Positions 2,250 to 37,648 of a stretch of 52,545 bases of DNA are shown here, piece by piece. The notes below the pieces were generated by a model. The model was given only the letters and a program-made list of their open reading frames with translations. It searched no databases and was not told the origin of the DNA. Location: assembly GCA_965197425.1 (NCBI GenBank), contig CBDANC010000011.1:1-52545 (forward strand), in the 5' to 3' direction. Position 1 is the stretch's first letter, and every line of letters begins with the position of its first letter. A program made the translations under genes and the position numbers. Source of the stretch: Bdellovibrionales bacterium. GTDB taxonomy: Bacteria; Bdellovibrionota; Bdellovibrionia; Bdellovibrionales; JAUICD01.

Positions 2250-2342
2250 CTCAAAATGAATAGGCTTTCTAGGCGCTGACCGATGGTTTTTCACCATCAG
2301 ATCAGTGCCAGAAAGCACGCTAGCGGCGTGATTCATTTTGAG
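2250..2342 (+). repeat. Structured three-way-junction element, copy A
   Basis: P1 CTCAAAATGAAT/ATTCATTTTGAG; P2 GCTTTCT-A-GGCGCTGA...TCAGTGCC-AGAAAGC; P3 CACGCT/GGCGTG. Confidence 0.75.
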
Positions 2343-2545
2343 GAAGACAGCCCTTTTATATAAGAAGTTAGAGGTAATAGGTACAAACGTTTATAGACGA
2401 AGGTGAACACAGAGATATATTATAGTTAGATAAAGTTATGAATTTCTGGCAATATTTATTAAACTTTTATTTTTGAAGCCGCTACTATTAAATTATAAGG
2501 TTTATAGCTTATTCATTCACAAATCATCATAGAGGAGTAGCAATT

Positions 2546-3712
2546 ATGAGGAAAACATATTTAACAAAAACAGTATTCATTATTAATATATTTTGCATTC
2601 TTTGTTTTTCTAAAGTAGCTACTGCTTTTTTTAATCAACAGGTACAGCAGCAACTTTTTTCTATGTTTCATCAAGAGCAAATGTGCAAGTCATTAGTTGG
2701 ATCACATATAACAAACAATTTTGAAATTAAGCCAGTAGCTCAAGCCTCCTTACCATTAGAATACTATATTCATGAAAGTATCCCTAAAGGACATAGGCCA
2801 TTTATTTATGATCAAGCAGAAGCATGGAATAACACCGCCGGCAATGAAATTGTTAGAATCAATAGTGAAATTGATCGAGGTGTTTTTAATCGTCGAGTGA
2901 ATAGCTCTGATCAAAAAAATGTTATTTACTTAATTGATGCATCTAATGACCCCAACAATAACATTACAACAAATGCAGATACTGTTGTACCAGGAGCTTC
3001 TGGCGTCATAACTTCTAAGGCAGAGTTTGATCTTAACACTTCTTCTTTTATACCTATTACTGATTCAGATATAATGATTGGAGAAGGAACGTTAACTGAC
3101 ATTGGCTTTTATAGAAATCTCTTACTTGTAGACATGAAAAGCTTAGGCATTGAAGGAGACTTTAATGATAAAAGTACTGAGACGATCAGAAGAGCAATAT
3201 CTAGTCATATTATAAATATGACTGACGAAGATGTTAAAGCTCTTTCAATAAAACTCCTTGAAGTTGAAAAAGAACGACTTGAAGCCTCCAGAAATACAGG
3301 AAGTACCCATGATACTATATTTGATGCACTAAATGAAATGGATCAAAGAATTGAAGGCATCCAAAATATGAGCACTCGGGAAGCTAGACAATTTAAAAAT
3401 AACATATCTCGTACACTCTTATTTGTAGATATGGACCTTATGGAATCTCAAAGTTCAGTTATCTTTCAAACCATTGTAAAGCGTAAAATAGGTGATGGAT
3501 TAGGCTTAATGGGCTATGTTCTTCCTGATAACCATCCTATGAGACATTCAAACATAATGAGACCTCATTATGTTGAAGATTATGGTCAAATTACAACTCA
3601 TAAAGAAATTGATCCTTTTGCTATTTTGGGTGTATTTTGCCTTTATAAAGACTACCCTACTATTACAAACTATGATGTCTTACATGCTGCTATTAGCTAC
3701 ATTAACAGATGA
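2546..3712 (+). CDS. Secreted zincin-like paralogue 2, zinc motif lost
   Basis: Aligns with 631-1782 over its length (SLPLEYYIHESIP, WNNT, SDQKNVIYL); HEMGH is replaced by RKIGD. Confidence 0.75.
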   Translation: MRKTYLTKTVFIINIFCILCFSKVATAFFNQQVQQQLFSMFHQEQMCKSLVGSHITNNFEIKPVAQASLPLEYYIHESIPKGHRPFIYDQAEAWNNTAGNEIVRINSEIDRGVFNRRVNSSDQKNVIYLIDASNDPNNNITTNADTVVPGASGVITSKAEFDLNTSSFIPITDSDIMIGEGTLTDIGFYRNLLLVDMKSLGIEGDFNDKSTETIRRAISSHIINMTDEDVKALSIKLLEVEKERLEASRNTGSTHDTIFDALNEMDQRIEGIQNMSTREARQFKNNISRTLLFVDMDLMESQSSVIFQTIVKRKIGDGLGLMGYVLPDNHPMRHSNIMRPHYVEDYGQITTHKEIDPFAILGVFCLYKDYPTITNYDVLHAAISYINR

Positions 3713-4144
3713 TTCTAATAAGGTTGTCTCCTTATATTTCTTAAGTGAAATATTTATTTAGATAATCTTTTAGCACTTATCATGCAATATAATAGGAAAT
3801 AAATAATCTGTTAAATCAAATGCTAATCTTATTGGTAATAATTGATTTATCCAAAAGCATAATATCAAGATACATAAATATCAATTTAGCTTATGAACCA
3901 GATAATAAAAAGTTGTAAAATTTAAATATTGACTTTAGGAATAAGCCTTTATTTAATTTTAGGAAATGTATAGTTAGGGTTTTATCATATATCTCTGCCA
4001 AATTACATTTTCATCTGTTTTACTTATGTAACAGAAGAAAATAGCATGACTGCTTCAATGTATACAGTTAGAGATGATGACGGTCATCTCAACAATACTT
4101 GATGTTTTTTGTTATTTATTCCGGTTATTGGGGAGGGGGAACAA

Positions 4145-4699
4145 ATGAAAACTCTTTTATCTATTTTGACTCTATCACTTTTATTATTTTTATATAGTTT
4201 TGCTTATGCAAACCAACTTGCTAATGATCCTCGTATGAGTTTAAGTTTTAGGTTTGCTCAAACCCTTGAAAGTGAAGATATTGCATCTATAGAAGCATTC
4301 ATAAGAGCAGGAACTGATGTAAACTCTCCTGAGATTGTGACTTACTTAGGAAAGACTCCTTTACACCATGCAGTCTTTGTAGAAAATATTCCAATGACCT
4401 ACATTCTTCTTGAGGCCAATGCCAGTGTTCACGCCTTGAATAATGCATGGAGAACCCCTCTCTTTGGAGTCGCTTTCAATGGAAATGAAACAATTGCTTG
4501 TATGTTATTAGCAAAAGGAGCACGTCTTGATCACCTGGATTATTTTGGTCGTAAAGCCTCTTTTTGGGCAAAGCAGAGCGGCCATGAAGGAGTAGCAAAT
4601 ACCTTAGAGACTGCAGAAAACACCAACACCAATGTCAACATCAACGGTGAGCAGAGAACAAATATTACTGACCTAGATGATTGCTTTAGACCAAAATAA
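4145..4699 (+). CDS. Secreted ankyrin-repeat protein
   Basis: GGAGGGGG RBS, signal peptide ending AYA, GKTPLHHA and RTPLFGVA ankyrin motifs. Confidence 0.85.
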   Translation: MKTLLSILTLSLLLFLYSFAYANQLANDPRMSLSFRFAQTLESEDIASIEAFIRAGTDVNSPEIVTYLGKTPLHHAVFVENIPMTYILLEANASVHALNNAWRTPLFGVAFNGNETIACMLLAKGARLDHLDYFGRKASFWAKQSGHEGVANTLETAENTNTNVNINGEQRTNITDLDDCFRPK

Positions 4700-4856
4700 A
4701 GCATATTTGATCCTTTATAAATTCATAGCTTCTAATAACATATTCTTATGAGAGCATTAAGTATTTATTTCTGGATATTTATACAAGCTTTAGAGAAAGA
4801 TTAAGTGTTACAAAGTATATAAGACTTACCGCTATTGAAAAATGACAAGGATCAGA

Positions 4857-5733
4857 AGAAAGGTGAACAATGGAGTTTTCTACAAAATTCTTTTTGATAT
4901 TCGTTCTTATAAACTTCAATACTCAATTGACTTTTTCTAATGATGTTCTTATAGAGGCTATTGGAGACAGGGATAGGGATATAGTAGAAGTTCAGGCACT
5001 ACTTGATGATGGAGTAGATCCTAACTCTTCAGATGATTACGGAAATACAGCTTTACAAATAGCGGCTTCTATTTGTTATGTAGAGGCAATGGAAGCATTG
5101 TTAAATGCTCATGTTGATCCTAATGCTACAAGTCATCGTGGAAACACACCTCTACAAATTGCATCTAAAAATGGCTGTATAGAAGGAGTGAGGTTATTAC
5201 TAAGTTTCAATGCTGACCCTTACCACAAAACTAATATTGGAATTACAGCCCTCATGTCAGCATCCCTTAATAATCATCCAGAAATGGTAAGATTATTATT
5301 ACAGATTGGAGCAGATCCTAATGCTGCAAATCACCATGGTAGGACAGCTTTAACAATGGCGGTCTTAAATCGTCGCCTAGAAATAGCAGCCGATTTATTG
5401 GCATGGGGTGGAGATCCTAATTATATAAATAGCAATGGTGATATAGCAGTTTTTATATCGGCAGTTCATAATTGTGATGCAGAGATGATGCAGCTATTAT
5501 TAGACTATGGAACTGATCCCTATTCTATCAATAAAGAAGATAAGGAAGCTGCTCTATTGATAGTTATTCAAAGAGGTTGTGTAGCAAGTACAAAGTTATT
5601 ACTTAGTATGGGAGGTATCGATGTCAATCGTATAGAAGATAACAGAACTTCTTTGATAATTAGTGTTGAATCTCGTTTAAAAGCATTACAGCACTTAGCA
5701 GAAGTAGAAATGAAAAGAAAAAATTTATTAAAT
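4857..5733 (+). repeat. 877-bp direct repeat, left copy flanking the IS1634 element
   Basis: No differences seen from 7683-8559 (constant offset 2826); abuts the left TIR exactly. Confidence 0.92.
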
Positions 5734-5751
5734 CCTGAGTTTGACAGTTGA
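4870..5751 (+). pseudogene. Truncated duplicate of the ankyrin gene 7696-8859, ending inside the IS TIR
   Basis: Same protein sequence to ...RKNLLN, then PEFDS* encoded by the IS end. Confidence 0.9.
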
Positions 5752-7682
5752 AAAAATAAAGTTGAGTAATTTTAATTACTTAAAGCTGTATTGGAATTTT
5801 GTGCCACTACATTTTCATTTTGTGGTAGAAATTTGAGAGATTTTTTTTAAGATTAAGTAGACTCAATTTTAAGTTGTTTAGAGGGTATCTTTGCTCCTAT
5901 AGCTTTAAATACATCAGCATTGTTACCGTTAATATCTGTTCTGATCCAAAGTGTCTTATCCTTTACCCTCACAGGTATAGCTCGTACTTCTTTCAGCTTT
6001 GACATAGCTTCTGCCACACTCAATGGCCTTGACTTTATTCTCTTGTCTGTAATTGCTTTATCTTTTAATGTGACGTTTCTCTGATGTAACTTCTTTGAAA
6101 AATAAGCCTCACATAAGTAAGATAAAAAACACACAACTAAATGTCCTAAGATCCTCTTATCTGTCCAGTGGAACATAGGACGTGTCTTTAATGTACCCTT
6201 CAACTCTCTAAATGAATTCTCTACCTTCCATAACTGCTTATAGTTCGTTATAATCTCTTCAGAACTTAAATTATCTGTATTTGTAATGATTCCAAAAAAA
6301 CCATCTGTCCTCTCTGATTGTTCTATGGCTGACTTATTTAAAGTAGGCTTGCTTTTACTCTTAGGATGAACAATATACTTCTTATAATTACTATTAGATA
6401 AAAAAGATCTTGTGCTTATAGACTTCTTTGATAATTGAGTTTCTATCTTAGATAGAATATCTTCTCTTACTTTCTTATCTCGTTCTGCTCTCTTTCTCGA
6501 CCAGGTAATTATACAACGATCATTATTATAACTTGTTTCGTATATAGCTAAATCTTCATTTATAAATTTAAAATTCTTTAAATTGTATATCTCTGAATGA
6601 CGATCCTTTAATAAACCTAGCTTTAATCCTACTATAAATTCATCTCCCTTTGCTTTTAATGATTGGAGATTCTCATTAGAAAATAAACCTCTATCTCCTA
6701 CTAATATAAATCTTCTGATCTTAAACTTCTCTTTTAGTTTCTCCATAACTGAAGGTATGGTTTTACCTTCAAAGGTATTCCCAGGATAAACATCAAAGCC
6801 TAAGGGCATACCTTCTGTATCTACTAAAAGTCCAAATACCACTTGTGTACAATCACTCCTCTTCTCTTTGCTATAACCAAATCTTCGAAGATTATCTAAA
6901 TCCTCTCGGGTACTCTCAAATCTCAATGTCGTTAAATCATACAAAATAACATCACACTCATTGAAAAAACTTAACTGAGACTTACCTTGTGTATAAAGAG
7001 TCTTCTCTATATCTTCCTTATGTTTAGATAGAATATCTAAAGAACGATAAATGTCTTGAAGATGAAGCTCCTCTTCTAAAAAATCAGGGTAAAATAACTT
7101 CTGCCAATGTGAAAATACTTTAAGCTTAGAACATGGCTCTACAAAACGACTTATAACCAATGTAAAAATAATCTTAACAAAATCAAATTGTACTTTAGGA
7201 TGCTTCTGTTTTAAATCTGTTAATAACTCATAGAGGTTTAATTGTTTAAAAATAGCGTCTATAATAAGCAGTGGACCTAATATAAATGTGTTCTGTACAT
7301 CAATCTCTTTAGCTATTTCACTGGCAGATGCAACATCTAAATGACGGCCTATAAGATCAAGAAGCTCTTCTAAGCGAGTATCTTTTACTCGACCTAAAGA
7401 CATAAGTGTCCTATGTCGACTCTTACCATCTTTGCGATAGCTTTCCACAATATGATAATATTTCTGACCTCTGCCGTTTTTAGTCTCTTTTATAAACATA
7501 AAATTAGACTACATAGAAAATTTAAAAAATCAAGAAAAAATAAGCATATGATGCAGAGTGTATAATAAATTGTTTCACTACACTTTTGACGAAAACTCAA
7601 ACTCACTGACCGCTAATACCTATAAATAAAGCATTCTTTAAAGAAAATGTTCCGAAAATTTGAATTAAGTGTCAAACTCAGG
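5734..7682 (-). mobile_element. IS1634-family insertion sequence, about 1949 bp
   Basis: TIRs CCTGAGTTTGACAGTT (5734) and AAGTGTCAAACTCAGG (ending 7682) enclose a DDE transposase. Confidence 0.92.
5853..7499 (-). CDS. IS1634-family DDE transposase
   Basis: Motifs VESYRKDGK, YDLTTLRFE, FGYSKEKRSD, GNTFEG, VGDRG, YKQLWKVENSFRELK, RPMFHWTDKRI. Confidence 0.93.
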   Translation of the reverse strand: MFIKETKNGRGQKYYHIVESYRKDGKSRHRTLMSLGRVKDTRLEELLDLIGRHLDVASASEIAKEIDVQNTFILGPLLIIDAIFKQLNLYELLTDLKQKHPKVQFDFVKIIFTLVISRFVEPCSKLKVFSHWQKLFYPDFLEEELHLQDIYRSLDILSKHKEDIEKTLYTQGKSQLSFFNECDVILYDLTTLRFESTREDLDNLRRFGYSKEKRSDCTQVVFGLLVDTEGMPLGFDVYPGNTFEGKTIPSVMEKLKEKFKIRRFILVGDRGLFSNENLQSLKAKGDEFIVGLKLGLLKDRHSEIYNLKNFKFINEDLAIYETSYNNDRCIITWSRKRAERDKKVREDILSKIETQLSKKSISTRSFLSNSNYKKYIVHPKSKSKPTLNKSAIEQSERTDGFFGIITNTDNLSSEEIITNYKQLWKVENSFRELKGTLKTRPMFHWTDKRILGHLVVCFLSYLCEAYFSKKLHQRNVTLKDKAITDKRIKSRPLSVAEAMSKLKEVRAIPVRVKDKTLWIRTDINGNNADVFKAIGAKIPSKQLKIEST

Positions 7683-8559
7683 AGAAAGGTGAACAATGGA
7701 GTTTTCTACAAAATTCTTTTTGATATTCGTTCTTATAAACTTCAATACTCAATTGACTTTTTCTAATGATGTTCTTATAGAGGCTATTGGAGACAGGGAT
7801 AGGGATATAGTAGAAGTTCAGGCACTACTTGATGATGGAGTAGATCCTAACTCTTCAGATGATTACGGAAATACAGCTTTACAAATAGCGGCTTCTATTT
7901 GTTATGTAGAGGCAATGGAAGCATTGTTAAATGCTCATGTTGATCCTAATGCTACAAGTCATCGTGGAAACACACCTCTACAAATTGCATCTAAAAATGG
8001 CTGTATAGAAGGAGTGAGGTTATTACTAAGTTTCAATGCTGACCCTTACCACAAAACTAATATTGGAATTACAGCCCTCATGTCAGCATCCCTTAATAAT
8101 CATCCAGAAATGGTAAGATTATTATTACAGATTGGAGCAGATCCTAATGCTGCAAATCACCATGGTAGGACAGCTTTAACAATGGCGGTCTTAAATCGTC
8201 GCCTAGAAATAGCAGCCGATTTATTGGCATGGGGTGGAGATCCTAATTATATAAATAGCAATGGTGATATAGCAGTTTTTATATCGGCAGTTCATAATTG
8301 TGATGCAGAGATGATGCAGCTATTATTAGACTATGGAACTGATCCCTATTCTATCAATAAAGAAGATAAGGAAGCTGCTCTATTGATAGTTATTCAAAGA
8401 GGTTGTGTAGCAAGTACAAAGTTATTACTTAGTATGGGAGGTATCGATGTCAATCGTATAGAAGATAACAGAACTTCTTTGATAATTAGTGTTGAATCTC
8501 GTTTAAAAGCATTACAGCACTTAGCAGAAGTAGAAATGAAAAGAAAAAATTTATTAAAT
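7683..8559 (+). repeat. 877-bp direct repeat, right copy
   Basis: Starts immediately after the right TIR; includes the RBS (AGAAAGGTGA) and the first 288 codons of the ankyrin gene. Confidence 0.92.
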
Positions 8560-8859
8560 GGGAGAGAGGATGCATTTTATGACGAAGTGACACAGATATA
8601 TCCAGAAGTTCATTTAGAAGTCATGGATTTATTATTAAAAGCTGGAGCTAGCCCAGATGTCACAGATCAAGATGACTTTACACCTTTAATGTCAGTAGCT
8701 ATTGAAAATGACATAGAAGCAGCTAAAGTGTTGCTAAATCATGGAGCTGATACTGGTTATACAAATTACTTGGGTTATTCAGCTTTAAACATTGCCAGTC
8801 TTAATGGTGACGGGGGTATGATTGAATTAATTAGAGGATCAGACGAAGTACAAAAATAA
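7696..8859 (+). CDS. Secreted ankyrin-repeat protein, intact copy
   Basis: Signal-like N-terminus; repeats GNTALQIA, GNTPLQIA, GITALMSA, GRTALTMA, FTPLMSVA. Confidence 0.92.
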   Translation: MEFSTKFFLIFVLINFNTQLTFSNDVLIEAIGDRDRDIVEVQALLDDGVDPNSSDDYGNTALQIAASICYVEAMEALLNAHVDPNATSHRGNTPLQIASKNGCIEGVRLLLSFNADPYHKTNIGITALMSASLNNHPEMVRLLLQIGADPNAANHHGRTALTMAVLNRRLEIAADLLAWGGDPNYINSNGDIAVFISAVHNCDAEMMQLLLDYGTDPYSINKEDKEAALLIVIQRGCVASTKLLLSMGGIDVNRIEDNRTSLIISVESRLKALQHLAEVEMKRKNLLNGREDAFYDEVTQIYPEVHLEVMDLLLKAGASPDVTDQDDFTPLMSVAIENDIEAAKVLLNHGADTGYTNYLGYSALNIASLNGDGGMIELIRGSDEVQK

Positions 8860-8909
8860 TTGACAAGCTTTCAAACAATTAAGACTGTTAGAAAGACAGA
8901 GGGAAATAT

Positions 8910-9710
8910 ATGAAAAAGTATACTGCAAAAGCATTTACCCACCAAGGTAAAGGTGGAAACACTGCGGGTGTTGTATTGGATGCTGCTCATTTAAGCCCTT
9001 TAGAAAAACAAAGAATAGCTAAAAATTTTGGGCATTCAGAAACAGCATTTCACATTCAATATCAAGACGGAAAAGAAGAGCTAGAATTTTATACTCCAAC
9101 CAAAAGAATTGACTTTTGTGGACATGCAACAGTAGCTACCTATGGCATTTTATCTAAAGATTATTCTGCTGGAACTTATACAGTACATATCTCAGGGCAA
9201 AAAGTCAAAGTTAAAATAGAAAATGATAAGATTGGTCTTCAACAAAAGCTTTCATTCATCAATGAGGTTTCAAATTTTAAAACTTTGTTATCTTCATCTT
9301 TTTCAAATTTTTCCTTAGAAAACTTAATTGATGTAAAACACATTAACAATGGAGTCTCATTTTTTGTTATTGAGGTTACTGATTGGAATTCTATTAAAAG
9401 TTTAAAACCAGTTCATCCTGAAATTGAAAAAGTAAGTCAAAAATATGATTTAGTAGGTTACTATTTGACATCACCTGTTGAAAATCATCAAAGTATGACT
9501 AGAATGTTTGCACCTTATTACGGAATACCAGAAGAGTCTGCAACAGGTATGGGAGCAGGATGTTTAATGGCCTACTTAAATAAAAAATATGGAATTACAT
9601 CACATACAGCTATTCAAGGTATGGCTATGCAACCGGAACAACCTTCACGTTTAGACTCAGAAATTGAAGAAAACAATATTTGGGTATTTGGCAGATTTCA
9701 AGTTACTTAA
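8910..9710 (+). CDS. PhzF-family (DAP-epimerase fold) protein
   Basis: AFT...GGNTAGVV, SETAF, FCGHAT, RMFAP, EESATG motifs. Confidence 0.9.
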   Translation: MKKYTAKAFTHQGKGGNTAGVVLDAAHLSPLEKQRIAKNFGHSETAFHIQYQDGKEELEFYTPTKRIDFCGHATVATYGILSKDYSAGTYTVHISGQKVKVKIENDKIGLQQKLSFINEVSNFKTLLSSSFSNFSLENLIDVKHINNGVSFFVIEVTDWNSIKSLKPVHPEIEKVSQKYDLVGYYLTSPVENHQSMTRMFAPYYGIPEESATGMGAGCLMAYLNKKYGITSHTAIQGMAMQPEQPSRLDSEIEENNIWVFGRFQVT

Positions 9711-11303: not shown

Positions 11304-12392
11304 ATGAAAAAAGCACATTTAACCAAAGTAGCACTGATTATGAGCGTGTTTTGTTTTTTTAAGATGACTATGGCTTTTTCTTATCAACAAGCACAACAAC
11401 CCTTTTCTATGTTTTATCAACAGCCAATATGTCAATATCTTGTTTATTCTTATATAGAAGAAAATGAAGTTAAACCCATAGCGCAAGAATCTTTGCCATT
11501 AATATATTATTTTCATGAGAGTGTTTCTAGAGAACATAAGCCTATTATTTACGATCAAGTAGAAGCTTGGAATAACATTACAGGTAATGAAGTTGTTAGG
11601 ATTAACTCTGAAATTGAATATGGTGCTTTTGATCCTCGCACAGATAATCCTGATCAAAAAAATGTTATTTATTTAATTGATGAGGAAGATTATGCTCGCG
11701 TTTTAAATTCATCTGGCAATGATACCATAAAAGGAACTTCAGACATTTTCCTACCAGGAATGTCTAGGATAGCAATCTCCACAACAAATAATGATCAGGA
11801 TGCTTCCCTATATATTACCGGTTCAGACATTCTCATTAGAGAAGAGGTATTAACTGATATTAGCTTTTACAGATATCAGTTACTCATAGATATGAGGAAT
11901 TTAGGTATTGAAAAAGATTTCAGTAATGAAAGTATTGAAGTTATAAGAGATGCAATAGTAGATTATATGACAAACGTGAGCGATGAAGATTTGAAAGCTG
12001 GCTTAGTAAGAGATATCTATAGGGCAACAGCTATTCAAAATCCTAATCCTGATTCTAGCCAGTTAGATGAAATCAATGCATATGTTGAAAGCTTCACCGA
12101 TGAGCGGCTTAGAGGTATCAGAACTGATGCAATGAATAATCTCTTATCTATAGATATAAGTTCTCAGGACTCAATTGTCTTGCAAAATACTATAAGACGC
12201 GAAATGGGACACGGGTTAGGTTTAGGAAGCTACATGCTTCCCGATGGTCACCCAATGAGGGATTTAAATATAATGAGTCCTTACCGTGGCGCGCAAGCTT
12301 ACAATCAACGAGTTCTTAAAGAAATTGACCTTTTTGCTGTTCAAGGTATACGTTGTCTCTACAGAGGGTACCCTAACTTCACACGTTATTAG
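11304..12392 (+). CDS. Secreted zincin-like paralogue 3, first His lost
   Basis: AAGGAG RBS; aligns with 631-1782; motif reads REMGHGLGLGS. Confidence 0.75.
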   Translation: MKKAHLTKVALIMSVFCFFKMTMAFSYQQAQQPFSMFYQQPICQYLVYSYIEENEVKPIAQESLPLIYYFHESVSREHKPIIYDQVEAWNNITGNEVVRINSEIEYGAFDPRTDNPDQKNVIYLIDEEDYARVLNSSGNDTIKGTSDIFLPGMSRIAISTTNNDQDASLYITGSDILIREEVLTDISFYRYQLLIDMRNLGIEKDFSNESIEVIRDAIVDYMTNVSDEDLKAGLVRDIYRATAIQNPNPDSSQLDEINAYVESFTDERLRGIRTDAMNNLLSIDISSQDSIVLQNTIRREMGHGLGLGSYMLPDGHPMRDLNIMSPYRGAQAYNQRVLKEIDLFAVQGIRCLYRGYPNFTRY

Positions 12393-12551
12393 AAGCCATC
12401 TCTCCTAAGCTGCTAGCTTAGGCCTATTGTTTAATAGCCTGTTACAGAGTTCTTTAGAAAGATAATTCGTTATTTCTTTTGTTTGCCTCTATTTATCTGG
12501 CAGTTAGATAAACAGGACGATTTGACATCTGTCTGTATTGATTTTTTTATT

Positions 12552-19035: not shown

Positions 19036-19341
19036 TAGTTAGCTCATTGAGTGGATCTAAGTTGTAAGTGCAACTCCTTTTAAAGTTGTTTAAAGAGGGT
19101 TAGAGGAATACTCTAATCAATTCCTTAAAAAAACGAAAGCGACCAAAAAGCCGCCTCGTGCCCCGTCATTCGTAAATCACAGGGGTAGCTAACTAATAAT
19201 ATGATATAAAACAATAAAAAAAGTCAAATTAAAAGCTTTAATATAGGAAATCTATAATCCTTTTTTATTCACCAGAGTCTTACAGTTCGCCTAATATTAG
19301 AGGTGGTCGGCACGACTGGATTTGAACCAGCAAATCTCTTC

Positions 19342-19440
19342 CTCAAAATGGTCTCGCAAGCGACTTTCTGATTGTTAGCCAAGAGGGTTTATACACCCTC
19401 TTTAAAAAGCTAACAATCTAGAAAGCATGACCATTTTGAG
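19342..19440 (-). repeat. Structured three-way-junction element, copy B1
   Basis: Reverse complement: CTCAAAATGGTC/GACCATTTTGAG; GCTTTCT-A-GATTGTTAGC...GCTAACAATC-AGAAAGT; short TCGC/GCGA hairpin. Confidence 0.75.
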
Positions 19441-19587
19441 TATTTTATTATCATACGGACAATAGACATGAATTACCTAACTTCTTTAACTTTGTGTATA
19501 GATAATCTCGTTGTTAAAAGCGAATCTAAAGTGATGAATTCTCTTATGATGGTCGGCACGACTGGATTTGAACCAGCAAATCTCTTC

Positions 19588-19686
19588 CTCAAAATGGTCT
19601 CGCAAGCGACTTTCTGATTGTTAGCCAAGAGGGTTTATACACCCTCTTTAAAAAGCTAACAATCTAGAAAGCATGACCATTTTGAG
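19588..19686 (-). repeat. Structured three-way-junction element, copy B2
   Basis: Same sequence as B1. Confidence 0.75.
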
Positions 19687-19795
19687 TATTTTATTATCAT
19701 ACGGACAATAGACATGAATTACCTAACTTCTTTAACTTTGTGTATAGATAATCTCGTTGTTAAAAGCGAATCTAAAGTGATGAATTCTCTTATGA

Positions 19796-19872
19796 TGGTC
19801 GGCACGACTGGATTTGAACCAGCGACCCCATGCACCCCATGCATGTACGCTACCAGACTGCGCCACGTGCCG
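19796..19872 (-). tRNA. tRNA-Pro(GGG)
   Basis: 77-nt cloverleaf CGGCACG...CGTGCCG-A-CCA; anticodon arm CATGC-ATGGGGT-GCATG; GGTTCAAATCC T-arm. Confidence 0.97.
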
Positions 19873-28744: not shown

Positions 28745-28824
28745 GTTATTGGGTGTTTTTTCAAAAAAGTTATTAGAACTCATCTCAAAATGATTTCCTG
28801 TGTTCACAAAACAAACCTGTTTCA

Positions 28825-28892
28825 CTCAAAATGAACGCTTACGACTTTCTTAAAGCGTGCATGCTCGCTTTAAGAGAGTCCGTCTATTTTGA
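28825..28892 (-). repeat. Structured three-way-junction element, short degenerate copy C
   Basis: Reverse complement TCAAAATAGACG...TAAAGCG...CGCTTT-AGAAAG-TCGTAAGCG-TTCATTTTGAG. Confidence 0.55.
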
Positions 28893-28893
28893 C

Positions 28894-28979
28894 TAGAAGC
28901 CATCTTTAGCTATATTATGTTTTGTATTTTGCAATTTTGTATTATTTACTGCTATCATGTATTTTTGAGATGGCTTCAA
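28894..28979. mobile_element. MITE-like element (AGAAGCCATCT / AGATGGCTTC ends)
   Basis: Same terminal inverted repeat as 2158-2249 and again adjacent to a structured element. Confidence 0.5.
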
Positions 28980-28996
28980 TAATAAGGAGATCCTCA

Positions 28997-29746: not shown

Positions 29747-29773
29747 ATGTCATAAAAGGTCATATAACAAACA

Positions 29774-30871
29774 ATGAAACCGACCATTCTGTGTGTTGAT
29801 GATGAAATTGACAATGTTGAGGTCTTAGAAAGGACTTTCCGCGCATCTTATCATGTGATGACAGCTACTTCTGGCTTGGAAGCTCTTAAATTATTAGAGC
29901 AAAAGGAAGTGGCTGTTATTATTAGTGATCAGAGAATGCCTCAAATGACGGGAGTGGAATTTTTACAAAAATCTATTTCTTCACATCCTGATACCATACG
30001 CATATTATTGACGGGTTATAGCGACATAAACTCTGTTATTGATGCTATTAATACAGGTCAGGTTTATCGGTATATCACAAAACCTTGGGATATCCATGAT
30101 TTAAAGTCTACTGTTGCAAGGGCTATAGAGCGTTACTCTATGCACAAAGAGCTTCAACAAAAGACAGAAGATCTCAAAAAGGCGTATGAGGAGCTTAAAA
30201 GTTTAGATCAAGCTAAGTCTCATTTTATGCTATTAATTCACCATGAGTTGAGGACTCCATTAACAATTATTTCCAATTTTTTAGAATTATTGGCACAATC
30301 TGGTTTAAATTCAGATCAGGCTCTTTATTGTGAAAAAATCCAATCTGGAGCAGATCGTTTGAACGAGCTGATTTTCTCTGTTTTAGAGATTATGGAAGCT
30401 GAGACAGGACGATTAAAGCTTGTTAAAGGTTCTATTCATTTAAAACCTATTATAGAAGACCTTCTCTTAGAACTTCAGAGTTCTGCAAAGGATGGGAAGC
30501 AAGCGTTTGACCTCCAAATTTCAGAAGATTCTGTGTGTGCAGATCAAAAAATTATAAAAAAAGTACTGAAAAAGTTACTTCAAAATGCTATTGAGTTTTC
30601 AGAACCTAATAAGACAATCTCTATTCGATCTGTTCATAAGGAAGATCAAAACATAGAGGTTTCTATAACAAATACTGGTCCAACTCTTTCTGAAGAGACT
30701 ATTAGGAGTATTTTAAAACCGTTCACGCTTAATGAAGACAGCATGAAGCATAGTAAGGGGCTTGGGCTTGGGCTTAGCCTTTGTCAGTCTTTATTAAAAT
30801 GTCATGACTCCAAATTGCAGATTATCAGTCAGAACAACACTATAAAAGTTAGCTTTGTTCTTAAAAAATGA
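29774..30871 (+). CDS. Hybrid receiver-histidine kinase
   Basis: VDDE, SDQRMP, KPW receiver; HELRTPL; NAIEF; GLGLGL. Confidence 0.93.
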   Translation: MKPTILCVDDEIDNVEVLERTFRASYHVMTATSGLEALKLLEQKEVAVIISDQRMPQMTGVEFLQKSISSHPDTIRILLTGYSDINSVIDAINTGQVYRYITKPWDIHDLKSTVARAIERYSMHKELQQKTEDLKKAYEELKSLDQAKSHFMLLIHHELRTPLTIISNFLELLAQSGLNSDQALYCEKIQSGADRLNELIFSVLEIMEAETGRLKLVKGSIHLKPIIEDLLLELQSSAKDGKQAFDLQISEDSVCADQKIIKKVLKKLLQNAIEFSEPNKTISIRSVHKEDQNIEVSITNTGPTLSEETIRSILKPFTLNEDSMKHSKGLGLGLSLCQSLLKCHDSKLQIISQNNTIKVSFVLKK

Positions 30872-31003
30872 GTTTCAATCAATAGAATGATTGTCAGGAC
30901 GTGATATTCTCATTATAATGATAAAAGTGCTTTACAAATACCAAAATTTAAATTTATATTCTTATAATTTTTTAAAATAAAAAAGGTTGAGGAAAAATAA
31001 TTT

Positions 31004-31336
31004 ATGGCAACTCAAAGTGTTCAAAGTCAAAAAATTCATATTCGCCTTAAGGCGTTTGATTACAGACTACTTGATCAATCGACAAAGGAGATCATAGAAA
31101 CTGTTCGAAGGACAGGCGCGAAAGTTGCGGGACCTATACCACTTCCTACTAGAATTAATCGCTATACTGTTTTAACATCGCCGCATGTAGATAAAAAATC
31201 GCGTGAACAATTTGAAATTCGCACTCACAAGCGAGTTTTAGATATTTTAGACCCAACACAGCAAACTGTTGATCAGTTGATGAAGTTAGACCTTTCGGCG
31301 GGAGTAGATGTAGAGATCAAATTATCGGTAGTTTAG
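31004..31336 (+). CDS. rpsJ: 30S ribosomal protein S10
   Basis: [33 protein letters not shown]. Confidence 0.98.
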
Positions 31337-31445
31337 ATAAAAAAAGTGATTTGATAAGACTTTATAGTAGCTTAGAAAACTCGATAGACGTTTCTTTCAA
31401 ATAATGAGAATATAATTTTTCAATCAGGGATTAGGGATAATAATA

Positions 31446-32498
31446 ATGGTAAATGACAACCAGAAAGACAATGATTCGAAGGCACCTTCTTTAGAGGATT
31501 CTCAAGGAAGCCGTGTATCTGCGGCAGATTCTTCTGCTAAAGATTCTGTAGCAGAGGGTGAACAAACGAAGCAAGTCGAATCATCAAGTGTAGAGGTCAA
31601 GGTGGGAGATGACTTGAAGCCAGAGGTTTCAGCGCAGGACTCACAATTGCAAGCAGATAGTCCTGATCAAGTAGCAGAGTCTTCTTCTAAAACTTCAGAT
31701 CAGGTTGTAAAAACGCAGAAGCAAGATGAAGACAAAGATTCGGAGTTAGCAGATGAGGAAGCTACAGCACCCGAAGAAGAGCAAATTATAGAAGAGAAAT
31801 TACCAGAACTCTATTTAAATGGTCTTTATGCTATTAAGCTAGGTATGTCTTCTGTTTACAATGATCAAGGGCAAGTTGTTCCTGTGACAGTTTTAAAATT
31901 TGATACTTGGAAGGTCACACAGATAAAAACAAACGAGAAGGATGGATATATTGCTATTCAATTAGGATCGGGTCCAAAGTCTGAGAAAAAGTCGAATCTT
32001 CCTCAAAAAGGTCATTTGAAGCCTTCTGGTTTTCCAACTAATGTGACTTTTTTATGTGAGATTAGAGGAGAAATTCCACATCAACCTTCTGAAGAAGGTG
32101 AGAAGGATAGTGCAACTTCTCAAGATGGCCAGACGATCAATTGCCAGTTAGGTCAAGTTTTATCCATTCATAGCTTAGCAAAAGGTGATCGTGTACATCT
32201 TTCAGCTACTTCAAAAGGGCGTGGTTTTGCAGGTACAATAAAACGTCTAGGTTATAGTGGAGGCCCTGCTTCACATGGATCTCAATTTCACAGAAAACCA
32301 GGTTCTATAGGAATGTGTGAAGAGCCTGCACGTGTGCATCCTGGAAAGGGCATGCCAGGTCATCATGGAAATCGGAATGTGACTTTAAAGCATGTGGAAA
32401 TCGTAGATGTGATTCCAGCAAAAAAGGTTTTATTAGTTAAAGGCGGTGTTCCTGGTGGGCGCTGGCAGCTTGTTAAGTTAATGAAAGAGAGTGTTTAA
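31446..32498 (+). CDS. rplC: 50S ribosomal protein L3 with a long acidic N-terminal extension
   Basis: KLGMS, VPVTV, DGYIAIQ, SKGRGFAG, GPASHGS, LLVKGGVPG. Confidence 0.96.
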   Translation: MVNDNQKDNDSKAPSLEDSQGSRVSAADSSAKDSVAEGEQTKQVESSSVEVKVGDDLKPEVSAQDSQLQADSPDQVAESSSKTSDQVVKTQKQDEDKDSELADEEATAPEEEQIIEEKLPELYLNGLYAIKLGMSSVYNDQGQVVPVTVLKFDTWKVTQIKTNEKDGYIAIQLGSGPKSEKKSNLPQKGHLKPSGFPTNVTFLCEIRGEIPHQPSEEGEKDSATSQDGQTINCQLGQVLSIHSLAKGDRVHLSATSKGRGFAGTIKRLGYSGGPASHGSQFHRKPGSIGMCEEPARVHPGKGMPGHHGNRNVTLKHVEIVDVIPAKKVLLVKGGVPGGRWQLVKLMKESV

Positions 32499-32501
32499 AC
32501 C

Positions 32502-33266
32502 ATGCCTCAGATAGATGTATTACATTGGAATCGTCAAAAGATGAAAAGCATAGAGCTTCCTGATGTTATATTTGCAGGACCCATTAAAAAGCATATTTTA
32601 CATGAGGTTGTGAAGTGGCAACTTGCTAAAAAGCGTCAAGGGACTCACAAAGTAAAAACTCGCGCTGAAGTTTCTGGAGGGGGTAAAAAGCCTTTAAAAC
32701 AAAAAGGTTCAGGGCGTGCGCGTCAAGGCTCTACACGCTCTCCTTTGATGAGGGGAGGAGGGGTGATATTTGGTCCTTCTCCAAGGAGTTACAATTACAC
32801 TCTTGGTAAAAAGGTTAAGAGAGCGGGTTTGCGATCAGCACTTTCTTATCTTTTTAAGGAAAAGCGTTTCTATGTTGTGCCAGAGATGACATCTGAAGAC
32901 GGAAAGACAAAAGATCTTTTAAAAAAATTACAAGGTTTTGGTGTTTCCAAAGCAGTGTTGATTGACAATTTAGAAGTACCGCTTTTTAAAAGAGCAGCTA
33001 GAAATTTACCTTACTTCAGGTATTATTCTACAGATGGTTTGAACGTGTATGATCTTTTAAAATATGATACGGCCATTGTTACAGAGGGTGCATTAAGTGG
33101 TATTATGGCAAGATGCATGCCTCATCATGAGGACGGACAAACTAATGAAGATAAAATGAGCCATCACGATGGGGACCATCAAGATGGGGACCATCAAGAT
33201 GAGGCTCATCAAGATGGGGACCATCAAGATGGCGATGGCAACGATCAAGATAAACGGAGTGATTAA
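32502..33266 (+). CDS. rplD: 50S ribosomal protein L4 with a His/Asp-rich C-terminal tail
   Basis: RQGTHKVKTRAEVSGGGKKP.KQKGSGRARQGS, GGGVIFGP. Confidence 0.97.
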   Translation: MPQIDVLHWNRQKMKSIELPDVIFAGPIKKHILHEVVKWQLAKKRQGTHKVKTRAEVSGGGKKPLKQKGSGRARQGSTRSPLMRGGGVIFGPSPRSYNYTLGKKVKRAGLRSALSYLFKEKRFYVVPEMTSEDGKTKDLLKKLQGFGVSKAVLIDNLEVPLFKRAARNLPYFRYYSTDGLNVYDLLKYDTAIVTEGALSGIMARCMPHHEDGQTNEDKMSHHDGDHQDGDHQDEAHQDGDHQDGDGNDQDKRSD

Positions 33267-33268
33267 GT

Positions 33269-33562
33269 ATGTACAATATTATAAAGGAGCCTCTCACAAC
33301 AGAGAAAAATGCAAAGCACCAGGCCCAAAACACTTATGTTTTTAAGGTAGATAAAACAGCTACTAAGCAACAAATCATGAGAGCTATTGAGCAGTTATTT
33401 GAGGTTAAGGTTATAGGTATTCGGACTCTTATTTCTAGGAGGCGCAGGCATAGAGGACGAGGACAACGTACAGGTAAGAATACAAATAAAATTCATTATT
33501 GGAAGAAAGCTTTTGTGAAGCTATCGTCTAATAGTAAAATTCGACTTTTTGAAGGAGCTTAA
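33269..33562 (+). CDS. rplW: 50S ribosomal protein L23
   Basis: IIKEPLTTEK, ATKQQI, WKKAFVKL; operon position. Confidence 0.95.
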   Translation: MYNIIKEPLTTEKNAKHQAQNTYVFKVDKTATKQQIMRAIEQLFEVKVIGIRTLISRRRRHRGRGQRTGKNTNKIHYWKKAFVKLSSNSKIRLFEGA

Positions 33563-33587
33563 ATTAATTGTTTAAGGACATAGTACA

Positions 33588-34424
33588 ATGACTCTTAGAA
33601 ACTATAAACCATTCACACCTTCTCGAAGAACTATGACGAAGTCTGATTTTTCTCAAATCACCAAGGCATTTCCGGAAAAATCATTAGTTACAAAGAAAGA
33701 TCAAAAAGCAGGTCGTAATAATACAGGCCGTATTACTGTACGTTTCCGTGGATCTGGGCATAAGAAGCGTTATCGGATTATAGATTTTAGGCGATCTAAA
33801 ATGGACATTCCTGCAGTTGTATCTGCTATTGAATACGATCCAAATCGTTCTGCTTTTATAGCTCTTTTGTATTACAAAGATGGAGCAAAGTCTTATATTG
33901 TTGCTCCTTTAAATTTAAAAGTTGGTGATACTGTTTTATCTTCTCAATCAGCGGATATCAAACCTGGTAATAATATGACTTTATCAAAGATTCCATTAGG
34001 AACAATGATTCACAATATTGAAATCAAGCCAGGCAAAGGTGGACAGCTTGCTTTGTCTGCGGGATCTTATGGCACATTGGTTGCAAAAGAGGGTCGGTAT
34101 GTTTTAGTGAAACTGCCTTCGGGAGAGGTCAGGAAGGTGCTTACTGTTTGTAGGGCTTCTATAGGTCAGGTGGGTAATATAGAAAATGAAAATACGAAGA
34201 TAGGTAAAGCAGGTCGAACACGTTGGCTTGGTTGGAGGCCTCATGTTCGAGGCATGTGTCAAAATCCAATTGACCATCCTATGGGAGGGGGAGAAGGTAA
34301 AGGTAAAGGAAATCATCCTCAGACTCCTTGGGGTAAGCCTTGTAAGGGGCATAAAACACGTCATAGTAAGAGAGATGCTCACCTTATTGTAACTGCAAGA
34401 AAACCAAGAAAGAAAAAGAAATAA
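33588..34424 (+). CDS. rplB: 50S ribosomal protein L2
   Basis: [33 protein letters not shown]. Confidence 0.98.
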
Positions 34425-34437
34425 TAGGGAGGCTTAA

Positions 34438-34719
34438 GTGGGACGTTCTATCAAAAAGGGGCCATTTGTTGATGATCATTTGTTAAAGAAAATACAGAAA
34501 GCTAAGGCTGAGGGAGATCGTAAGGTCATAAAAACTTGGTCAAGACGTTCGACTGTGATTCCAGATGCTGTGGGCTTGACATTTGCTATTCATAATGGCA
34601 AAAAATTTATTCCTGTTTATATAACAGAAAACATGATTGGCCATAAATTGGGAGAGTTTGCTCCAACTAGAATCTTTAAGGGCCATTCTGGGGATAAGAA
34701 AATGAATGTGACTCGATAA
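34438..34719 (+). CDS. rpsS: 30S ribosomal protein S19
   Basis: [28 protein letters not shown]. Confidence 0.98.
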
Positions 34720-34760
34720 GAGTTAGAATATAATTTTTATTTAGGGAAGAGGATAAGATT

Positions 34761-35093
34761 ATGGAAGTGAAGGCTTCTTTAAAATTTGCAAGAGTAGGAA
34801 CGCAAAAGGCCAGGCTTGTTGCCAACTTGGTGAGAGGGCAGCATGTAGAAAAGGCATTAAAGCAACTTGTTTTTTTAAACCGCAAGCCAGCAAAGGTTAT
34901 AAAAAAACTCATCTTATCCACGCTCGCAAATGCTAGGCAGAATAGTTATATTGATATAGATACTTTATTTATTAAGAAGATCATTGTAAATGAGGGGCCT
35001 CATTACAAACGTCAGATTCCTAGAGCGCAGGGACGTGCTTCTTTAATTAGAAAAAAATCAAGCCATATCGATTTGGTGTTAGCTGAGAGGTAA
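34761..35093 (+). CDS. rplV: 50S ribosomal protein L22
   Basis: [16 protein letters not shown]. Confidence 0.97.
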
Positions 35094-35101
35094 AATATAT
35101 T

Positions 35102-35770
35102 ATGGGTCAAAAAGTAAATCCAATTGGATTGAGATTAGGTATTAATAGGACATGGGATTCTCGTTGGTATAGTAAGGGACCTAGTTTTGCTAAGAACCTA
35201 CATGAAGATTTTAAATTGCGAAAATATGTAAAAAAACAATTAAAACATGCTGGAGTTTCAAGAGTTGAAATTGAGCGTATTGCAAGTAAGGTGAAGCTTA
35301 TTGTTTTTTCTGCAAGACCTGGTGTTGTGATTGGGAAAAAGGGAACTGGTATTGATGCTCTTAAAGCTGATGTGCAGCGTTTTACAAAGGACGAAGTTTT
35401 TATCAATATTCAGGAGGTCAGAAAGCCTGATATTGATGCTCATTTAATTGCTAAGAGTATTGCTATACAGTTAGAAAAACGTGTTTCTTGGCGTAGAGCA
35501 CTTAAAAAAGCTTTAAAAGCTGCTGTTTTAGGTGGAGTTAAAGGGATTAAGGTACAAGTTGCAGGCCGATTAGATGGGGTAGAAATTGCAAGAACAGAAT
35601 GGTACACTGAAAAAAGTGTGCCACTTCACACTTTAAGGGCTCAAATTGACTATGAGACAGCAGAGGCACTGACAACTTACGGGATCATTGGAGTGAAGGT
35701 ATGGATTTACAAAGGGGATGTTATGTCACTTAAGGCATTACGTCAGGAGACACAGCGTGCTCAGTCCTAA
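35102..35770 (+). CDS. rpsC: 30S ribosomal protein S3
   Basis: [31 protein letters not shown]. Confidence 0.98.
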
Positions 35771-36170
35771 GAAGGTTAAATGGAGAAAGCAATTTCGACC
35801 TTACTTAAGTGGTAAGGCTCATTCGGGGGACAAAATTTCCTTTGGTGATTTTGGAATGCAGGCTCTTACAGCAGGTAAATTAACCTCTCGTCAGATTGAG
35901 GCGAGTCGTATTGCTATTAGTCGTTCTGTGAAGAGAGGCGGGCGGGTTTGGATTCGTATATTTCCTCATATTCCTGTGACCAAGAAGCCAGCAGAAACAC
36001 GTATGGGAAGTGGTAAAGGGTCTCCAGAGTATTGGATTGCTCATATAAGACCTGGCACAATTCTTTTTGAAATGGTTGGGGTGACTATAGCGCAAGCAAA
36101 AAGAGCTTTTGAATTAGCTGGTCATAAACTACCTATTAAAACAAGGTTTTTAAAGAGAGAATCTTTATGA
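35757..36170 (+). CDS. rplP: 50S ribosomal protein L16
   Basis: GTG start at 35757 ([12 protein letters not shown]), WIRIFP, RMGSGKG, KLPIKT. Confidence 0.97.
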
Positions 36171-36391
36171 AATATAAAAATATAAAAAACTTAGAACAGG
36201 AAGAGATTTTAAAAAAGATGACTGAGTGTTTAAATGAGCTCTTTCAATTAAGAATGACAAAAAAACTAAATCAGGTGACCAATCCTGTAAAGATTAGAAC
36301 ATTGAGGCGAGACATTGCTCGTTTGAAAACAGTATTATCTCAAAGAAGGCTATCAAAAGATACAAACTTAGAGGCAACTGCAAAAAATTAA
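36167..36391 (+). CDS. rpmC: 50S ribosomal protein L29
   Basis: [19 protein letters not shown]; operon position. Confidence 0.95.
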
Positions 36392-36407
36392 TATTTGGAG
36401 ATAAAAG

Positions 36408-36956
36408 ATGGCAGAGAATCAGGATGAAAAGAAAGAGCAGAAGACAGATGATGTAGTAGTAGATCAGGCGGCTTCAGATCAAGATCAGGCGGTAGCATCA
36501 GATAAAGATCAGGTTAAAGCAGATAGCGTGGAACCTAAGGGTGGTGCAGATAAAGGTGTTGATGACAGCAAATCATCTGATCAAGTGCCTTTAAAAACAG
36601 AAGAGAAAAAGAAAGTCCGAAAGCCAAAACCAAAAGCAGATATAAGAGTTCAACAGGTGGGTCATCGAAGAAAGGTTCTTGATACAGATAAAGTGAAGGA
36701 GCGTGGACGCAAGATTGAGGTTATTGGTGATGTGATCAGTGATAAGATGAACAAGACGATCACTGTGCAGATATATAGAAAGGTTCGTCATCCTCGTGTT
36801 GGCAAGTACATTAAGAGGAGTACAAAATTCAAGGTTCATGATGAGAAGAACGTAGCGCATATAGGGGACAAGGTTTTAATTCATGCTACTCGCGCCCTCA
36901 GCAAGACAAAGTATTGGAAGTTGTCGAAAGTTGTAAAAGCCGGTGAAAGATTATGA
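36408..36956 (+). CDS. rpsQ: 30S ribosomal protein S17 with a long N-terminal extension
   Basis: VISDKMNKTITV, VHDEKN, GDKV, TRALSKTK; GGAG RBS before ATG 36408. Confidence 0.95.
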   Translation: MAENQDEKKEQKTDDVVVDQAASDQDQAVASDKDQVKADSVEPKGGADKGVDDSKSSDQVPLKTEEKKKVRKPKPKADIRVQQVGHRRKVLDTDKVKERGRKIEVIGDVISDKMNKTITVQIYRKVRHPRVGKYIKRSTKFKVHDEKNVAHIGDKVLIHATRALSKTKYWKLSKVVKAGERL

Positions 36957-37321
36957 TGTTAAGAGTAAGATTTCCTTAACATGATGTAAAAAGATGAGGA
37001 GAATCTCCCTCCTAAAAATAGTCAGGCTTTCTAGGTAATGACCTATTTGCTGAAGGCGTGAGCCTTCAGGGTCATTACCAGAAAGTGGCTAGAGGCCAGA
37101 TTATTTTTAGGGAGACAGCAGTTATCGAGGATTATAAAAGCCGGTGAAAGGTTATGATGTTAAGGGTAAGATTTCCTTAACATGATGTTAAAAAGTGAGG
37201 AGAATCTCCCTCCTAAAAATAGTCAGGCTTTCTAGGTAATGACCTATTTGCTGAAGGCGTGAGCCTTCAGGGTCATTACCAGAAAGTGGCTAGAGGCCAG
37301 ATTATTTTTAGGGAGACAGCA
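36920..37321 (+). repeat. 201-bp tandem duplication including the rpsQ 3' end and structured elements D1 (37012-37110) and D2 (37213-37311)
   Basis: Constant 201-bp offset; LSKVVKAGERL* versus LSRIIKAGERL*; P1 CTAAAAATAGTC/GATTATTTTTAG. Confidence 0.9.
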
Positions 37322-37356
37322 TTAGAAAAAACAAAGGAAAAAATCTTCGAAGTAAT

Positions 37357-37455
37357 GATTTGATATTTTAAGCCAATCCTCGAAGTCCTCGAGTAAACCG
37401 CTTGGTAGCGGTTTACCCTGCGGAAGATCTCGTCTTTGGCTTAAAACATCAAATC
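37357..37455. repeat. Second type of long palindromic element
   Basis: gatttgatattttaagccaa/ttggcttaaaacatcaaatc outer stem; gtaaaccgc/gcggtttac inner stem. Confidence 0.65.
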
Positions 37456-37550
37456 TTGTTTTATTATAAAGATTTGTGGATGATTTGTAAGGGAAGGATG
37501 GAAGGAAATTTTCCTTAACATGATGTAAAAAGATGAGGAGAATCTCCCTA

Positions 37551-37648
37551 CTAAAAATGAACAGGTTTTTGAGGCAATGAGCATTTTACGAGGGCGTTAG
37601 CCGTCGTGCTCATTGGCCAAAAATGGTCAGAGACCAGTTCATTTTTAG
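37551..37648 (+). repeat. Structured three-way-junction element, copy E
   Basis: CTAAAAATGAAC/GTTCATTTTTAG; long P2 with bulged A; TGGTC/GACCA hairpin; preceded by the same leader of about 40 bp as D1 and D2. Confidence 0.75.

Follow-up and report, generated by a model that had tools for sequence, protein, structure and literature searches.

The window, a 52,545-nucleotide (nt) stretch that makes up contig CBDANC010000011.1, carries seven copies of a folded intergenic repeat built as a three-way junction. The element is real: a selfish, so far uncatalogued repeat, restricted to one genus, whose insertions leave unusual marks and which occurs in hundreds of copies in related genomes. The mechanism favoured here, with a probability of about 40 %, is that it moves as a folded single strand joined sloppily by a template-switching, probably reverse transcriptase (RT)-like polymerase. 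A literature search, with most subscription papers outside its coverage, found no description of the element.

Structure and covariation of the element

The main form, type A, is about 150 bases long and consists of a 41-nt leader (TTTCCYTAAC…), the three-way-junction core and a short tail, TGAAAC(A/G). Its 5' part is TTTCCYTAACATNNTRTWAA, followed by a weak purine/pyrimidine hairpin and then by stem P1 (12 bp), a linker of 3 to 4 nt, and P2 and P3, stacked without linkers. P2 is formed by 6 bp, a bulged A, 10 bp, a bulge of 5 to 6 nt, 7 to 8 bp and a GNNA loop, and P3 by 5 bp with an AGA loop. The core measures 94 to 116 nt, and in 167 copies P1 is preceded by YYTA (top strand) or TTCA (bottom strand). 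The tetraloops are GNNA and not strictly GNRA (8 GNRA and 8 GNYA among 19 tetraloops of genome G002, described below). P1, P2 and P3 variants are freely shuffled among copies, and slippage repeats are present in P3 and in the leader. A minimal element with leader, P1 and tail, without P2 or P3, was seen at L001:1295-1384 (48.7 bits).

When 63 copies were aligned by sequence alone, 31 of 41 pairs were altered on both sides and 96.2 % of 2562 cells paired, a level matched by none of 500 shuffles and set against 34 to 48 % in slid controls; the copies are related and the structure was taken from one member, so these figures are not a probability. The stem changes are compensatory, as the initial annotation of the window, made from its letters alone, had proposed, and the covariation and pairing statistics support its view that selection acts on a single-stranded fold. 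G·T cells outnumber A·C cells by 74 to 25 on the given strand (one non-helix column dropped), which extends to a larger set the concentration of G-T pairs on one strand first described in the window. The leader is conserved in sequence without covariation; a hairpin formed by its palindrome was rejected for lack of covariation, and pairing between the ends of the element for not exceeding chance. Near-perfect covariation among intergenic copies can stem from a selfish element and not from a functional host RNA, and caution is needed in reading it.

All seven copies and the 3' scrap were found at the positions first noted (Table 1), and comparison yields the same five distinct sequences (37012 is identical to 37213, and 19342 to 19588) with one shared architecture. 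Folding z-scores range from -4.6 to -10.8, and none of the 200 shuffles made for each of the five sequences folds as well. A core model run on the window with filters off returned exactly seven copies at 37.9 to 115.6 bits, a result that holds by construction since the model was trained on them; the next-best matches were their own reverse strands or scored 17 bits or less. Three kinds of copy are present: type A (37012, 37213, 37551), copies enclosed in a miniature inverted-repeat transposable element (MITE; 2250, 28825) and copies linked to tRNA-Pro (19342, 19588). The 12-bp P1, the bulged A of P2 and the short P3 are as first drawn. The P2 motif GCTTTCT/AGAAAG, given for all copies, occurs in five of the seven, 37551 having GTTTTTG/CAAAAAT and 28825 being short and degenerate, and the purine-rich tail is present with its consensus corrected to TGAAAC(AG). 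The limits originally drawn were too short, three copies reaching 41 nt further 5' through the overlooked leader, and the MITE shell around two copies and the origin of the contig in another genus had likewise been missed. The absence of a known riboswitch or ribozyme core was upheld by an Rfam search of the window and 60 kb of copy-rich G004 sequence, which only tRNAs passed (tRNA-Pro in the window); a weak HPnc0260 match scored 43 bits, under the 59-bit cut-off.

Distribution and mobility

The window is contig C11 of its own assembly (G000), and it was compared mainly with G002 and G004, single-contig genomes of a sister Bdellovibrionales genus. G002 is 90 % complete, and 2.70 of the 2.94 Mb of G004 was scanned, the remaining 8 % being covered by family search only. 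Exact matches to a leader-plus-P1 pattern numbered 423 in G002, 142 in G004, 8 in G000 and 0 in the other 387 genomes of the class. Covariance models found the element in 3 of 151 genomes of the order and in 0 of 150 other genomes of the phylum, a sample outside which G002 and G004 lie. The scanned 2.70 Mb of G004 holds 428 footprints at 213 sites, including 177 full copies, 144 of them distinct. Pattern scans gave 0 and 0 matches in viral sequences and 0 and 2 in metagenomes, the latter two failing to score with the model, and two non-Bdellovibrionales matches among the matches listed (80 genome stretches) scored 25.6 and 14.2 bits and were taken as chance.

Within G000 the element is confined to contigs C1, C4 and C11. 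Long orthologous blocks are about 85-92 % identical to G004 for C11 and C4, 84 % for C1 and 67-70 % for C6; judged by this block identity, the window contig, together with C1 and C4, was binned wrongly and comes from the genus of G002 and G004. Two S10-operon ends are present in G000, the second rplN and rpsQ lying on C14 (72 % and 52 % identical). Contig C9 is presumably eukaryotic-transposon-like and C10 phage-like, as far as their open reading frames (ORFs) suggest. Judging by the ankyrin-rich gene content, the habitat may be host-associated.

It is very probable that the element is a selfish mobile element. The sites of 2250 and 28825 are empty at the G004 orthologues, and that of 28825 is also empty in relative X4 (joint 28768/28995). 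The rpsQ-rplN interval holds arrays in both the window and G004, but of different variants. In 11 of 21 cases at G002 loci, the truncated copy upstream of a full copy and the 3' fragment downstream of it form a perfect pair, where chance predicts 2.3 and gave at most 8 in 2000 draws; this indicates that the central part of an older copy is replaced when a new one inserts. Among 215 cases of neighbouring footprints, 196 are arranged head-to-tail, 17 diverge and 2 converge. Copies disrupt tRNA-like genes, four-helix-bundle genes and other copies of the element. The initial annotation had left the choice between a noncoding RNA or processing motif and mobile DNA; the copy number in the hundreds, the orthologous sites without insertion and the nesting of copies bear out the latter, and the former is left unsupported by the turnover of sites among close relatives, an orientation that is only 61 % sense, and broken genes.

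A domesticated regulatory RNA (mRNA stabiliser, processing site or small RNA) kept for the benefit of the host would agree with the very stable fold, with the 61 % sense orientation between co-directional genes (78 sense against 50 antisense), with the occupation of rpsQ-rplN in both genomes, and with the lack of tail ends within 13 nt of a start codon (0 against 9.9 expected). It is nevertheless very unlikely in view of the empty orthologous sites and the differing variants at the shared one, the insertions into coding sequences and into the element itself, the 97 further sites between convergent or divergent genes and the restriction to one genus, although single copies may still serve as stabilising hairpins. 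The earlier remark that the G-T-rich strand is the transcribed one for six of seven copies is literally true, but it concerns only four loci and the genome-wide bias is weak.

Four-helix-bundle (PF05635) cassettes with degenerate CCGGCA-type repeats number 14-19 per genome (contigs C6 and C12-C15 of G000; G002; G004), and G000 carries them yet is without RT, Y1 or tyrosine recombinase. They were rejected as a mobilising partner, there being 19 in G000, whose main contigs are without the element, and are taken as a target instead.

Junctions and mechanism of insertion

The tail stands at the mature tRNA end in 8 of 34 G004 tRNA genes, against 0.34 expected from 514 tail ends; five cases lie against the CCA (antisense) and three at the 5' end (sense). 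The 3' joints have either C-AG microhomology, which falls mainly in the P3 loop, or a tail of 9-11 nt followed by unrelated bases, and junctions overall display 2-3 nt of microhomology or extra bases, with a variable target base before the joint. The 5' joints are purine-rich (68 % purine in the 20 nt before the leader, background 50 %), and the strings that follow elem2, an unrelated repeat treated below, are distinct in 22 of 25 cases and composed of 50 % A, 36 % G, 12 % T and 3 % C. An origin of the 5' filler from a mutated target duplication was rejected (similarity 12.14, null 11.97±0.23, 126 copies), templating from elsewhere in the genome was unconvincing (longest match 15.1 nt, 13.6 nt for shuffles), and 3' fragments showed no excess of self-repeats over chance (2/56 and 3/28).

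Joining of the tail to a site 30-150 nt upstream of the element, with duplication of that DNA, is frequent (23 of 126 copies, array-internal ones included), and such upstream duplications were found at 25 of 178 flanks and at 18 of 300 controls (within 20 kb). Among 14 loci examined, the duplication starts within the final 61 nt of an ORF on the same strand in six, in a sense tRNA in two, in intergenic DNA in five and in overlap with a spurious ORF in one; all eight that start in a real gene or tRNA do so in its 3' part and on the same strand. The rpsQ duplicate that separates the first two type A elements of the window is diverged, and the same spacer in G004 is a perfect copy of the rpsQ end of that genome. 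The tRNA-Pro-linked form is also present at one G004 tRNA-Pro.

Several further arrangements lie near tRNA genes or rplN. On a single contig of relative X4 the first 30 nt of tRNA-Pro appear to be joined directly to the element (window 19458/19843), by which the anticodon arm would be replaced. Four tRNA-like calls of unknown type with an 88-89 nt period stand just before tRNA-Trp at G004:2198524-2198863, and seven tandem 431-nt units at G004:858165-860990 hold a tRNA-Ser 5' part between element ends on opposite strands. Duplicated rplN 3' ends at 41633 and 44552 lie between giant Cys-rich repeat genes (a paralogue array, window 37669-52545), one of which has an M12 peptidase domain. The element scrap is absent before the copy at 41633, and a similar scrap stands before the second rplN piece of G004, which is likewise a duplicated rplN end between giant repeat-protein genes. 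The rplN-end duplications may have been started by the element.

Under the favoured mechanism, the top strand would be released from read-through transcripts and trimmed 6-10 nt past P1, and the junction, with its A-tract stems and bulged A, would be recognised by an enzyme, as might the leader. Copying would start at a break or nick beside a stem, such as a tRNA acceptor stem or the element's own P3 loop, and would jump between templates, with deletions, duplications and filler rich in purines as the result. A further round of copying would be open only to copies with an intact fold, which would explain covariation within one genome. Group II intron-like RTs add untemplated bases and join microhomologies (10.1101/2022.03.14.484287). 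The sloppy joints, A-rich tails and mature-tRNA-end joints fit a template-switching polymerase best. DDE transposition needs inverted ends, and exact HUH transfer, as described for TnpA-REP (PMC8266576), gives neither filler nor free target bases.

A number of results weigh against such a polymerase. No RVT_1 match and no relative of the retron-like RT of G004 was found in G002, the copy-richest genome, and RtcB is present in G004 only. The nesting test in G004 was not significant (1/8 against 0.4), none of three tRNA genes in G002 loci abuts the element exactly, and in the three sense tRNA cases as many as about 4 bases are left unaccounted for. A GATAGTAA-like motif is common to the filler strings, which may therefore be inherited and not fresh; the strings are also T-poor, whereas the cited group II intron-like RTs prefer T=A>G>>C (10.1101/2022.03.14.484287). 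GNYA loops suit single-stranded DNA equally, and tRNA adjacency could alternatively reflect targeting of stem feet on single-stranded DNA with selection to keep the CCA.

No linked mobiliser emerged from Pfam searches of 335 G004 proteins and NCBIfam searches of 78, the 335 being drawn from 354 filtered representatives of 1230 G004 ORFs without G000 homologue; the scanned set consisted of non-membrane proteins of at most 900 amino acids (aa). Family searches of G002 gave no match to Y1_Tnp, RVT_1, IS110, Y2_Tnp (whose control matched nowhere), Ku, DinB, RtcB, DUF772 or DDE_3, and none of the nine had a match common to G002 and G004; the TnpB search covered G000 only. Enzymes seen in G004, none of them linked to the element, are a group II intron RT, a partial one, a further RT, an IS200-type gene, RtcB and Cas1. 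G002 and G004 have XerD-like genes and Cas1 in common, and one GIY-YIG gene of 612-653 aa occurs in all five genomes. A 590-aa RT with an N-terminal extension (L054; G004:2649859-2652294), which we take to be retron-like from its motifs, has a tRNA-Asp, an element copy and two RtcB genes within 12 kb. Ends of multi-copy families in G004 (seven; five insertion sequences and one Rpn family read; three without usable matches) did not resemble the element.

Cutting and joining of folded single-stranded DNA by a lost or unrecognised HUH-type enzyme (REP-, IS200- or IS91-like, rolling-circle), with the tail end as origin and read-through past the leader capturing upstream DNA, is unlikely, although the bulged stems, GNNA loops and arrays recall repetitive extragenic palindromes (REPs) and bacterial interspersed mosaic elements (BIMEs), the tail often ends in C before A or T, the upstream duplications are one-ended and there is a slight leading-strand-sense bias (105 against 76 sites). 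GTAG is lacking. The base that precedes the target joint varies and the joints carry extra bases, unlike the exact C|T joins described in PMC8266576. The linked HUH (RAYT/TnpA) transposase that had been suggested was not found: Y1_Tnp has no match in G000 or G002, and its single match in G004, an IS200-type gene 1.8 kb from the nearest copy, has no flanking copies. Y2_Tnp, subject to the failed control, gave no match either.

The want of a cognate enzyme would itself be expected if hairpins broke or stalled replication and host repair (microhomology template switching, gene conversion) patched the lesion with another copy; the targeting of other hairpins, the free mixing of P1, P2 and P3 types and the slippage repeats agree with this. 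Specific recognition is indicated, however, by the fixed 5' motif and tail, the strand asymmetry of the G·T and A·C cells, the conserved bulged A and the excess of divergent over convergent pairs, and the genus has no DinB or Ku; repair alone is judged unlikely. Integration of the folded strand at secondary sites by the sole XerD-like recombinase or the Cas1 of the genus, through the TTAACA-N3-TGTTAA leader, would account for a leader conserved without covariation; XerD-like and small tyrosine recombinase genes occur in G002 and G004 and not in G000 or G001, and Cas1 in both G002 and G004. Variable filler and deletions are unlike conservative recombination, the leader is without the spacing of the dif consensus, Xer-type genes occur in G003 and Cas1 in G001, both without the element, and the score for an integron integrase reaches 75 where 265 is required; this route is very unlikely. 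No convincing dif site was found in the scanned part of G004.

Other repeats of the window and comparison with known systems

Table 1 Position, strand and character of features in the window
Feature	Position	Strand	Remarks
MITE-like shell, 330 nt	2158..2487	(+)	Imperfect ~18-bp terminal inverted repeats, TA at both ends; absent at G004 orthologous site
Junction core, type B1	2250-2342	(+)	Inside 2158-2487 shell; tail GAAGACAG; z-score tested, 71 bits
Second identical 246-nt unit	19304..19549	(-)	Core 19342-19440; tRNA-Pro 3' copy 19304-19331
Junction core, type C	19342-19440	(-)	Within second 246-nt unit
246-nt unit	19550..19795	(-)	109-nt spacer, type C core 19588-19686, tail, copy of last 28 nt of tRNA-Pro 19550-19577
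Junction core, type C	19588-19686	(-)	Within first 246-nt unit
tRNA-Pro(GGG), target gene	19796..19872	(-)	
MITE-like shell, 206 nt	28774..28979	(-)	Same family; absent in G004 and relative X4
Short degenerate junction core, type B2	28817-28893 (28825-28893 by core list)	(-)	Tail TGAAACAG; 38 bits
Type A element	36971..37118	(+)	41-nt leader 36971-37011, core 37012-37110, tail GGAGACAG; 159 bits
Diverged duplicate of rpsQ 3' end and bases after it	37119..37171	(+)	Joined to 3' tail of first element
Type A element	37172..37319	(+)	Core 37213-37311, identical to 37012-37110
elem2, unrelated long-hairpin repeat	37325..37490	(+)	z -5.9; 45 matches in G004
Type A element	37510..37656	(+)	Core 37551-37648; directly upstream of rplN; 154 bits
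Element 3' scrap	44510..44530	(+)	Before duplicated rplN 3' part

The shells have terminal inverted repeats, discrete sizes and many copies, with 109 arm matches in G004 and arm pairs spaced 77-84, 238-239 and 329-330 nt there; no MITE arms were found in G002, despite its 423 type A matches. Both ends are flanked by TA, and the empty orthologues are too diverged to show a duplication. Family searches of G002 and G004 gave no DUF772 or DDE_3 match that could represent a shell transposase. Copies 2250 and 28825 are now passive riders in this TA-flanked MITE. Pieces of the family, which is uncatalogued, lie at 1780-1796, 2158-2487, 12390-12402 and 28774-28979, and its inner arm, CTCAAAAAT, resembles the element's P1. 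The elem2 repeat inserts at the element's P3 and is usually followed by a hypervariable purine-rich string and then the type A leader, which follows in 24 of 29 cases. A DDE_Tnp_1 insertion sequence, presumably IS1634-like and present in more than 20 copies in G004, occupies 5733-7683 of the window and is flanked by long direct repeats of an ankyrin gene, which begin at 4852 and 7678.

The REP-like character first suggested holds for behaviour. Like REPs and BIMEs as described in PMC8266576, the element forms hundreds of intergenic, non-autonomous, strand-asymmetric folded copies with tandem arrays and a bulged stem. It is not a REP: REPs and their hairpin-forming pairs (REPINs) are described there as 20-50 nt palindromes after a conserved tetranucleotide, mostly GTAG, and TnpA-REP joins as exact at C|T (PMC8266576), whereas the element is a three-way junction of about 150 nt, three times longer, without GTAG, arranged head-to-tail and not in inverted pairs, with joints off C|T that often hold extra bases and without linked tnpA. 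Membership was rejected on the tetranucleotide, the flanking tnpA-REP and the fixed dinucleotide (C|T, C|A). Type A was likewise rejected as a MITE, its flanking ends not pairing above chance and its duplications being 0 or 30-150 nt. Bacterial MITEs include Correia and RUP; type A differs from MITEs in having neither terminal inverted repeats nor a fixed duplication, and only the shells of 2250 and 28825 (~18-bp terminal inverted repeats, TA ends, fixed size classes) are MITE-like.

Integron attC sites end in RYYYAAC...GTTRRRY and are used by an IntI integrase. As generally described, they resemble the element in being variable in sequence and conserved in structure, with a strand-specific fold and an extrahelical base, and the leader starts YYTAAC; identity was rejected, with the GTTRRRY end in 6 of 167 copies, no gene cassettes and no IntI. 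A retron msr-msd was rejected for its varying linker (AG, GG, AA, AT, TT) and the lack of a conserved branching G; near the G004 RT only a downstream element copy is found, and G002 has no RT. The multicopy single-stranded DNA-like repeats of Nannocystis exedens, a predatory-type bacterium, were reportedly proposed by Lampson & Rice in 1997 to be dispersed repeats made by an RT. They share with the element a closing stem with a long and a short hairpin; the element, by contrast, lacks both a conserved branching G and an adjacent retron RT, and G002 is without any RT.

Eukaryotic short interspersed nuclear elements (SINEs) differ from the element in that it is bacterial, has no partner RT found, has an RNA intermediate that is only putative and keeps a fixed 5' motif. 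As generally understood, SINEs, target-primed insertion of non-long-terminal-repeat elements and tRNA template switching by the Mauriceville retroplasmid share with it a non-autonomous structured unit with an A-rich variable 3' tail, filler bases, deletions or variable duplications, and chimeras with tRNA ends; a variable A-rich tail together with imprecise joints was indeed found. That it is a true bacterial SINE, a 150-nt structured RNA hijacking an unrecognised template-switching polymerase, homing into its own copies and tRNA ends, evolving as a covarying quasi-species in one chromosome and driving tandem duplication of neighbours including the giant surface-protein paralogues at rplN, is a tentative and unlikely extension of the favoured mechanism. 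This family of small enzyme-less repeats is recent and diverse enough to record its own insertion chemistry in the form of nesting, filler, tRNA-end joints and upstream duplications, marks that match neither RAYT nor DDE transposition. If the RNA step is true, the element would rank as SINE-like, in bacteria and served by an as yet unrecognised polymerase.

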